A stretch of DNA of 64,000 bases from NCBI RefSeq assembly GCF_002113885.1, contig NW_018404479.1, forward strand, positions 1-64,000. Direction: 5' to 3'. Position 1 is the stretch's first letter; each line of letters begins with the position of its first letter. The translations under genes were made by a program, and so were the position numbers. Under the pieces are notes generated by a model, which worked only from the letters and a program-made list of their open reading frames with translations, did not search any database and had not been told where the DNA came from. Shown one piece after another: positions 39,332-39,823 of the stretch. The stretch comes from Mizuhopecten yessoensis. Its lineage: Eukaryota.

Positions 39332-39823
39332 TAGTATACAGTTAGAGTATGGGGTTGAGGGATATAACAAGTTTCTGGTGTCCCGAGACCAGGTCTATTT
39401 CCCGAGGCGAAGCCGAGGGAAATAGGCATGGTCAAGGGACACCAGAAACTTGCTACATGTATATATGCCTCAACCCCATACTTTAACCGTTTTATTATAC
39501 CGATACACACTGGAGAGATGGTTTTAACTAGAAAATATTTGTAAGCTGTATAGCTTCACGTCCCAAATACCCTTTTGATGGCAATGGAGCCAAAAACTTA
39601 CGAGTTCGGAAGCAAGCTCCGCCCACCTCGCGCGTCACTGCCGAGTTCGGTAACAAGCTCCGCCCACCTCTCGCCTGATTGGCTCGGCGGAAACACCCGA
39701 GTGTAGGTGTGTTTTAGTTCACAGACTAACACACAGGACTAAAACCCACTCAGGCAAAAGTGGGGATATATTCGATTTAACCAATTACTTTTATGTAGAG
39801 TAAATAAGGTAGAGGTGTAATAA
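39332..39823 (+). mobile_element. Non-coding element: ~165-bp hairpin with GCGAAGC apex, followed by TTATTATACC...GGTGTAATAA inverted ends (Crypton-like non-autonomous element, inferred)
   Basis: Foldback 39332-39497 with apex 39407-39413. Inverted pair 39492-39501 / 39814-39823 (9/10). Internal 29-bp direct repeat with GC boxes, plus CTGATTGG. Confidence 0.7.
39601..39684. promoter_or_regulatory. Duplicated GC box (CTCCGCCCAC) plus CCAAT box inside the hairpin element
   Basis: CGAGTTCGG.A.CAAGCTCCGCCCACCTC at 39601-39629 and 39642-39670; CTGATTGGCT at 39675-39684. Confidence 0.5.

Follow-up and report, generated by a model that had tools for sequence, protein, structure and literature searches.

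The window (the whole stretch of 64,000 nucleotides analysed, from Mizuhopecten yessoensis contig NW_018404479.1) carries a 421-codon open frame with a 7tm_1 rhodopsin-family GPCR domain (2829-4091, - strand, E 1e-19) and a 279-codon open frame (41442-42281, + strand) that had no Pfam match and presumably resembles the C-terminal part of a CR1/L2-type reverse transcriptase. The feature studied here is a 489-bp element of the form TATACAG...GGTRTAATAA with a hairpin at one terminus (Table 1); a second hairpin of the window, 106 nt long with a GAA loop, is located at 13860-13965.

A preliminary description of the locus had reported a foldback with a GCGAAGC apex and a terminal motif occurring three times. 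All of the foldback strings were recovered (39332-39360, apex 39404-39417, 39468-39497, TTATTATACC at 39492-39501 and GGTGTAATAA at 39814-39823). However, TAG at 39332-39334 is target DNA, because the flanks vary and there are empty sites, and the element starts with TATACAG at 39335. The terminal motif was therefore kept at the right end and, as an inverted copy, at the hairpin base, but its left 'copy' is a target half-site that resembles the motif and is partly host sequence. The fold of 39300-39850 reached -103 kcal/mol (z = -9.45; 0/100 shuffles as good), and the hairpin stem alone reached -56.0 kcal/mol on the + strand vs. -50.9 on the other strand.

The element is multi-copy rather than single-copy: its 28-mer at the hairpin base had at least 131 exact matches in the 988-Mb genome (0 for the control), and 41 other near-full-length places were found at 82-96% identity (40 scored of 629 candidates), both counts being lower bounds. 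Among the fetched loci, 68 copies had both ends, of which 63 were used after removal of one flank duplicate and four spans above 700 bp; 21 unpaired left ends were left out of this set. The apex displayed the GA/GA tandem mismatch in 46/53 readable copies, and the bubble at 39385-39386/39434-39435 was GA/AA in 40/63 copies and AA/AA in 12/63. The GCGAAGC apex is present in the window (39407-39413), where the apex motif occurs once vs. 0.02 expected, and GCGAAGC is described as a stable mini-hairpin (PMC13037366). Sheared G:A pairs are reported for CGAG blocks (PMC10085684). GCGAAGC was rejected as the key conserved signal, as the loop sequence differs between families (GAA, TTT, CTT, TT or GTA in the others). 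Among 95 copies binned to the window element's family, the apex loop was GAA in 75 and flipped to TTC in 2. These local apex flips (2/77 readable copies, both rearranged; 2/8 in sibling family S3) were the only ones observed, and no regular flip/flop of the whole hairpin was seen in the window element's family.

Table 1. Features of the element and of its target in the window.
Feature	Position	Strand	Basis
Whole non-autonomous Crypton element, 489 bp	39335..39823	+	Ends from 63 copies and 19 empty sites; parent L193, L174, L175
Host target, left half-site W-T-A-N (here ATAG), crossover after 39334	39331..39334	+	Flank counts; -1 variable
7-nt top-strand spacer TATACAG, first bases of the element	39335..39341	+	Outer arms exact in 75/79, remaining 4 within 1-2 substitutions
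Terminal hairpin stem; its base is the putative second recombinase-binding arm	39342..39486	+	Fold energies
GA opposite AA (39434-39435), purine-purine bubble	39385..39386	+	Copy alignment
Apex: tandem GA/GA mismatch (39404-05/39415-16) and GCGAAGC mini-hairpin (39407-39413)	39404..39417	+	
5-nt bottom spacer CCGTT; would face TATACAG in the folded, end-joined strand	39487..39491	+	Offset 5 is the best match across families
TTATTATACC, the right end repeated internally in inverted orientation; predicted partner of GGTGTAATAA once the ends are joined	39492..39501	+	
Remnant of the parent 3' non-coding region	39502..39569	-	Element positions 135-235, 80% match to L193
Remnant of the region upstream of the parent YR gene	39597..39813	-	Element positions 263-489 match L174 (85%) and L193 (83%)
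Right end GGTGTAATAA, putative first recombinase arm, cleaved after TAA	39814..39823	+	Copy ends, empty sites, junctions
Right portion of the host target: CATTAA as the 6-bp spacer, followed by N-T-A-W (T, TA, T)	39824..39833	+	Flank counts

Target site and empty sites

Flanks were readable in 62 of the 63 copies and revealed the target WTAN^N6-NTAW, formed by two inverted half-sites 6 bp apart. In the left flank, W was present at -4 in 55/62 copies, T at -3 in 57/62 and A at -2 in 59/62; in the right flank, T was present at +8 in 50/62, A at +9 in 47/62 and W at +10 in 58/62. The four core positions had P values of 1e-12 to 1e-26 in the logo of these copies. T was preferred at +1, where G was found in 0/62. 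Since it has two inverted half-sites 6 bp apart, the target has the layout of a tyrosine-recombinase (YR) site, and we take its TAN^ to resemble the arm ends of Cre, Flp and Xer. The spacer measures 6-8 bp in YR sites (PMC3212892) and 6 bp in dif (PMC4246890). The short similarity between terminus and target (4-6 bp) that is a trait of Cryptons was found here, the right end being TAA^ and the target TAN^. Insertion was not microsatellite-specific, a trait of some CryptonV families only (PMC8869645), and the targets were diverse WTAN^N6-NTAW sites.

Empty sites could be read for 19 copies inside tandem host repeats; they were precise, with zero duplication, in 17 of these and one base off in the other two. 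Together with the aligned termini, they fixed the ends of the element. No paralogous empty site is available for the window copy, because its right flank is single-copy. The element had been described as different from a conventional TIR MITE, and this holds: there is neither a TSD nor long terminal inverted repeats. A DDE-type MITE was rejected because the empty sites lack a duplication; copy ends and empty sites displayed neither TIRs at both termini nor a TSD of fixed length.

Parent element and Crypton membership

A search for the right end followed by the element start led to sibling families that keep the 5' part of a Crypton gene, and a search with these remnants led to three parent copies, L174, L175 and L193. 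L193 is a 3.4-kb element in which both ends of the window element flank a two-exon YR gene; it matches the window element at 83% over the right 227 bases and at 87% and 80% over the hairpin end, and its flanks follow the same target rule. L174 and L175 are partial. Despite two premature stops, L174 still shows the catalytic residues R, HxxR, H and Y; this copy terminates in an assembly gap. All of the parent copies found are broken. Two further loci (L194 and L195) are intermediate deletion derivatives. Exon 1 of the parent matched QRICH1 in Pfam (36.2 bits vs. a cut-off of 30.8), and exon 2 had weak matches to Phage_integrase and DUF3504, under the cut-off. The 70 loci around DUF3504 and Phage_integrase matches had no ends in common with the window element, except for one nested copy.

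The preliminary description had proposed a non-autonomous element, possibly mobilised by a Crypton-like tyrosine recombinase. Longer copies with the same ends that encode such an enzyme do exist (L193 and, partially, L174 and L175), and since the parent with both of the same ends carries a YR gene, the window element is a non-autonomous Crypton. By sequence comparison, it is a gene-less internal-deletion derivative of the 3.4-kb YR-coding parent, from which it retains the hairpin end and the region upstream of the gene. The regions matching element positions 263-489 adjoin the YR start directly on its upstream side, and 39597-39813, which carries what we take to be two GC-box-like repeats (39617-39627 and 39658-39668) and a CCAAT-like box (39675-39684), may have a promoter role. 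We are almost certain that this non-autonomous Crypton family is new and that its parent has been identified.

By contrast, it is very improbable that the element depends on a DDE enzyme, as a MITE, or on an HUH enzyme (Helitron/Helentron, IS200-like) and resembles Cryptons incidentally. Features of Helentrons count for the HUH reading. So do those of IS200/IS605, which likewise have no TSD, carry subterminal hairpins and insert 3' of a fixed sequence (PMC13565253). However, the partners with the same ends encode a YR and no HUH enzyme was found among them, insertion is duplication-free, and the target has a second half-site 6 bp off. To our knowledge, HUH enzymes need no second half-site.

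The window element and its parent share several traits with the animal Cryptons surveyed in 2011 (PMC3212892): a YR-only parent of 2-3.5 kb, a far commoner deletion derivative keeping both ends, the lack of a TSD and the QRICH1/DUF3504 relationship. Non-autonomous animal Cryptons were already known (PMC3212892, PMC5753468). In the parts of that survey dealing with animal Cryptons, no terminal structure is given and the terminal repeats are all listed as 'n.d.', whereas here the ends are resolved: a single hairpin lies at one terminus, the far end is repeated internally in inverted orientation, and the target has two arms. The YR of the parent comes from a gene with an intron and, in a tree of 33 catalytic segments (140 columns, without named references), stood apart from the strong-DUF3504 families A, B, D, F and H of the genome. 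The predicted structure of the intact family A protein (pLDDT 84) had its best matches in QRICH1, followed by Cre.

Young Crypton families with copies about 98-99.8% identical are present in the genome, namely A (L032-L043, L115-L117), E (L065-L069, L209-L225) and D (L061-L064). The open frames have 506 codons in family A, whose protein is labelled 'zinc finger MYM-type protein 2-like' by NCBI, and 645 codons in family D. A two-exon YR gene with both exons open and a 3.4-kb intron was observed at L173/L196 (G000:C3836:75675-80355). Its protein is 70-78% identical to that of the broken parent, and no matching element ends or hairpin were seen in its surroundings; this gene may have been domesticated, or it may be the only intact source of the enzyme that is left.

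Architecture of the ends and insertion products

Most multi-copy YR families of the genome have one terminal hairpin of 110-180 nt. On the hairpin-first strand, the stem is preceded by 7 nt, and 5 nt separate it from the far end's inverted copy. The offset of 5 was the best match in 10/10 families (9/9 in one comparison and family B separately), which are partly related (three share ends, A is akin to H, and D to F); for A, D, F and H, the start positions were chosen by visual inspection, in part with knowledge of the model. The start of family E was fixed independently by its flanks (TA in 12/12) and that of family A by a junction copy in L041. In 12 hairpins, all 22 of the 2x2 loops were purine-purine on the same strand, 19 of them GA/GA; one of these hairpins was mis-delimited and contributed one 2x2 loop. 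The computed energy preferred the GA strand in 8/12 hairpins, ViennaRNA strand energies being weakly informative.

The YR gene faces the hairpin in families A, B, D and H and in the parent, and faces away from it in C, E and F. Because gene orientation differs between families, the purine bias goes with the ends of the DNA, not with transcripts. The features conserved irrespective of gene orientation are the 7/5 spacer and the strand-specific GA/GA mismatches. A role of the hairpin at the RNA level was disfavoured, the GA strand being sense in three families and antisense in five. Families D and F (L061/L063 vs. L059/L073) have related ends and a target of the GAN^N6-NTC type with opposite gene orientation, which suggests a past inversion of the body between two inverted end copies.

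The target rule was repeated in the intact family E (TA in 12/12 left and 14/16 right flanks). Elsewhere, in small samples, the right half-site did not hold for B and C (TA at +8/+9 in 0/4 and 1/5) and was partial in F (3/7, with TC). The +1 base of the target tracked the first spacer base of the family: A was present in 13/15 sites of family A vs. 17/62 of the window element's family (P 4e-5), and G in 3/16 sites of family E vs. 0/62 (P 0.007). By analogy with CTXphi (PMC4246890), this trend is as expected from a homology check beside the cut.

Insertion products were one-sided. All 79 left ends carried the element's own spacer (75 exact, 4 within 1-2 substitutions), and so did all of the 51 left ends chosen by the internal site alone. 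By contrast, the element spacer followed only 1/75 right ends, in a head-to-tail pair. The element's 7-nt spacer was always on the left and the host 6-nt spacer on the right; the reciprocal product was absent from the 79 left ends (0/79), from the 75 right ends (0/75) and from the genome-wide search. Genome-wide, 13 of 14 matches to the right end plus TATACAG continued into the element start, and the fourteenth, examined by eye, had no element on either side. A duplex circle exchanging both strands (a 7-bp spacer against an unrelated 6-bp spacer) and then replicated would be expected to yield two product types in equal numbers, so that half of the left ends would differ; one type was observed.

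These counts bear on the classical route, in which a double-stranded circle undergoes two strand exchanges, the hairpin is an accessory binding site, a replication origin or an enhancer, and repair fixes the heteroduplex spacer one way. We regard this route as rather unlikely, although several points speak for it: it is the published model (PMC3212892, PMC13565253), the target is symmetric and two-armed, the junctions can be read as having short direct repeats (TANT/TAAT), and the rearrangements made by algal CryptonF (PMC9977147) agree with it. One-sided products could also arise if a heteroduplex were repaired with a strand bias. However, the spacer of the joined duplex site would be 7 bp long and bear no relation to the 6-bp spacer of the target, the reciprocal product was not seen among the ends counted, and the fixed 5-nt offset and the GA/GA loops on one strand are left unexplained.

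End-to-start junctions had no extra base in 12/12 cases. They are head-to-tail pairs, some of which join sibling families with the same ends, and because such mixed pairs are included, they show insertion at a resident end and not circles. At L161-L172, the sibling non-autonomous families S2 and S3 and the window element's family form head-to-tail stacks that look like cassette arrays. The junction of another tandem pair (L007:1481-1510) departs from the usual end at two positions.

Routes of insertion

From the end hairpin, the target sites and the one-sided insertion products we propose the following route. The + strand would be cut after TAN on the left and after TAA on the right and then rejoined, restoring the empty site on this strand and releasing a circle of one strand. 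Pairing of GGTGTAATAA with TTATTATACC in this circle would extend the hairpin to a two-armed att site whose mismatched 7/5 spacer would permit the first exchange only. The folded site would recombine with a double-stranded WTAN^N6-NTAW site of the host, and replication would resolve the exchange, fixing the insertion in one daughter. With its GA/GA pairs and GNA loops, the GA strand would be the one more prone to fold, and the substrate could be either a free ssDNA circle or a cruciform extruded from the duplex. Such a route predicts clean excision in one daughter together with a net gain of copies.

We infer an ssDNA or cruciform intermediate, as the preliminary description had done, and it has several independent supports. 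Taken as a whole, this Crypton deletion derivative, with its duplication-free insertion in a palindrome-like site, probably moves as a folded single strand via one exchange. With nearly the same confidence, we read its structure as favouring an integron- or CTX-like single-strand exchange resolved by replication. Slightly better than even, in our judgement, is the broader proposal that animal Cryptons are eukaryotic counterparts of integron cassettes, with a recombinase that recognises the structure of an att site folded from one strand (7/5 spacer, sheared GA/GA blocks, one arm completed by the joined ends), a one-strand exchange at any WTAN^N6-NTAW and replication to finish it. The apex flips, the right half-site (mostly lacking in the few sites of families B and C and partial in F), the energy bias of only 8/12, the two empty sites that are one base off, the start positions set by eye, the broken state of all three parent copies and the contigs of four runs, which had neither a circle joint nor an empty allele (contigs only), count against the folded strand.

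The integron attC/IntI system (PMC3458562) is alike in using a tyrosine recombinase, a similarly sized imperfect palindrome (its spacer unpaired, one of its arms with additional bases), a single strand with a double-stranded partner site, and head-to-tail arrays at a resident junction. The predicted fold here likewise gives two arms, a spacer that stays unpaired and additional bases on one side, with the 7/5 geometry in 10/10 families, and the absence of reciprocal products indicates that the product of one strand is inherited, as in attC and CTX. Unlike attC/IntI, the window element is eukaryotic, its YR is encoded by the family, it uses many degenerate host sites rather than attI, and it has GA/GA bubbles. 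The single-strand mechanism is demonstrated for integrons (PMC3458562), whereas we infer it for the window element.

CTXphi attP(+), recombined by XerC/D (PMC4246890), is a fold-back of ~150 nt in which two sites, neither of which has a usable spacer of its own, together form an att site; it shares the 6-bp target spacer, a pairing check beside the cut and completion of the insertion by replication. CTXphi differs in its host recombinases, its one dif site and its irreversible insertion, and in the window element one arm would be completed only when the two ends are joined.

CryptonF-1_cRei of algae (PMC9977147), although of a different clade, has a target resembling one terminus, and its clean excision comes with a net copy gain that the source, the first to observe active Cryptons, leaves unexplained and that the folded-strand route predicts; the main text of that source has 0 mentions of hairpin or palindrom. 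Algal CryptonF also makes inversions and reciprocal translocations (PMC9977147), which may reflect full double-strand recombination. A 2026 review calls Crypton transposition undemonstrated and assumes a double-stranded circle (PMC13565253). A full-text literature search yielded no description of the hairpin, the target or the single-strand model; Repbase, Dfam, Repbase Reports and Goodwin 2003, which lay outside this search, may describe hairpins.

Fold-back copies bear on another route, namely copy-out with a strand-biased circle and no empty site, like that of bacterial SE elements or a rolling hairpin, in which the hairpin would mainly be a primer or priming signal. At L041:404-737, a fold-back contains an inverted copy of the family A end-to-start junction and its outer arm runs into the far end of the element; the junction is suggestive of the circle junction predicted for family A and counts for the folded-strand route too. 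In another fold-back (L095:4251-4401), the outer arm is copied on into the host flank. Both copies fit copy-out, and so do the mini-hairpins at ssDNA priming signals (PMC13037366) and the use of YRs and formation of one-strand circles by SE elements (PMC9345347). The contigs of four runs contained the left junction in 4/4; neither a right-to-left circle joint nor an empty allele was seen in them (contigs only, the right flank being without cover), and the unseen empty allele would also fit copy-out. Nevertheless, this route is quite improbable. SE elements have a 6-bp donor spacer and, as described in PMC9345347, no inverted-repeat att structure, and the window family has no foreign spacer; the hairpin is at the 5' end of the GA strand, which makes self-priming impossible, and the loop sequence differs across families.

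For the proposed exchange of a folded strand, the locus provides precisely defined ends, a consensus for the target and a matching parent, together with predictions at the level of single bases (strand, bonds and pairs). As young families with intact open frames are present in the same genome (A, with copies about 99% identical), the Crypton mechanism is directly testable. If the proposal is true, site-specific recombination of folded ssDNA would no longer be confined to bacteria but would include transposons of animals, both the clean excision and the gain of copies would be explained, and a compact, low-specificity, break-free insertion system would become available. It would also hint at what the numerous hairpin repeats derived from Cryptons first did in animal genomes; among repeats related to Cryptons, a hairpin-like form is described for Eulor.

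Two local rearrangements were also observed. One copy of family A, unlike the others, is flanked by a direct duplication of ~50 bp (L032:660-711 and 2860-2915), which is either a repair event or an assembly artefact. Around the window insertion, the contigs of three of the four runs link 40354 back to 38700 with 266 letters between them (window positions 38700 and 40262-40354), and 38742-38769 resembles 40672-40699, which suggests an older local duplication.
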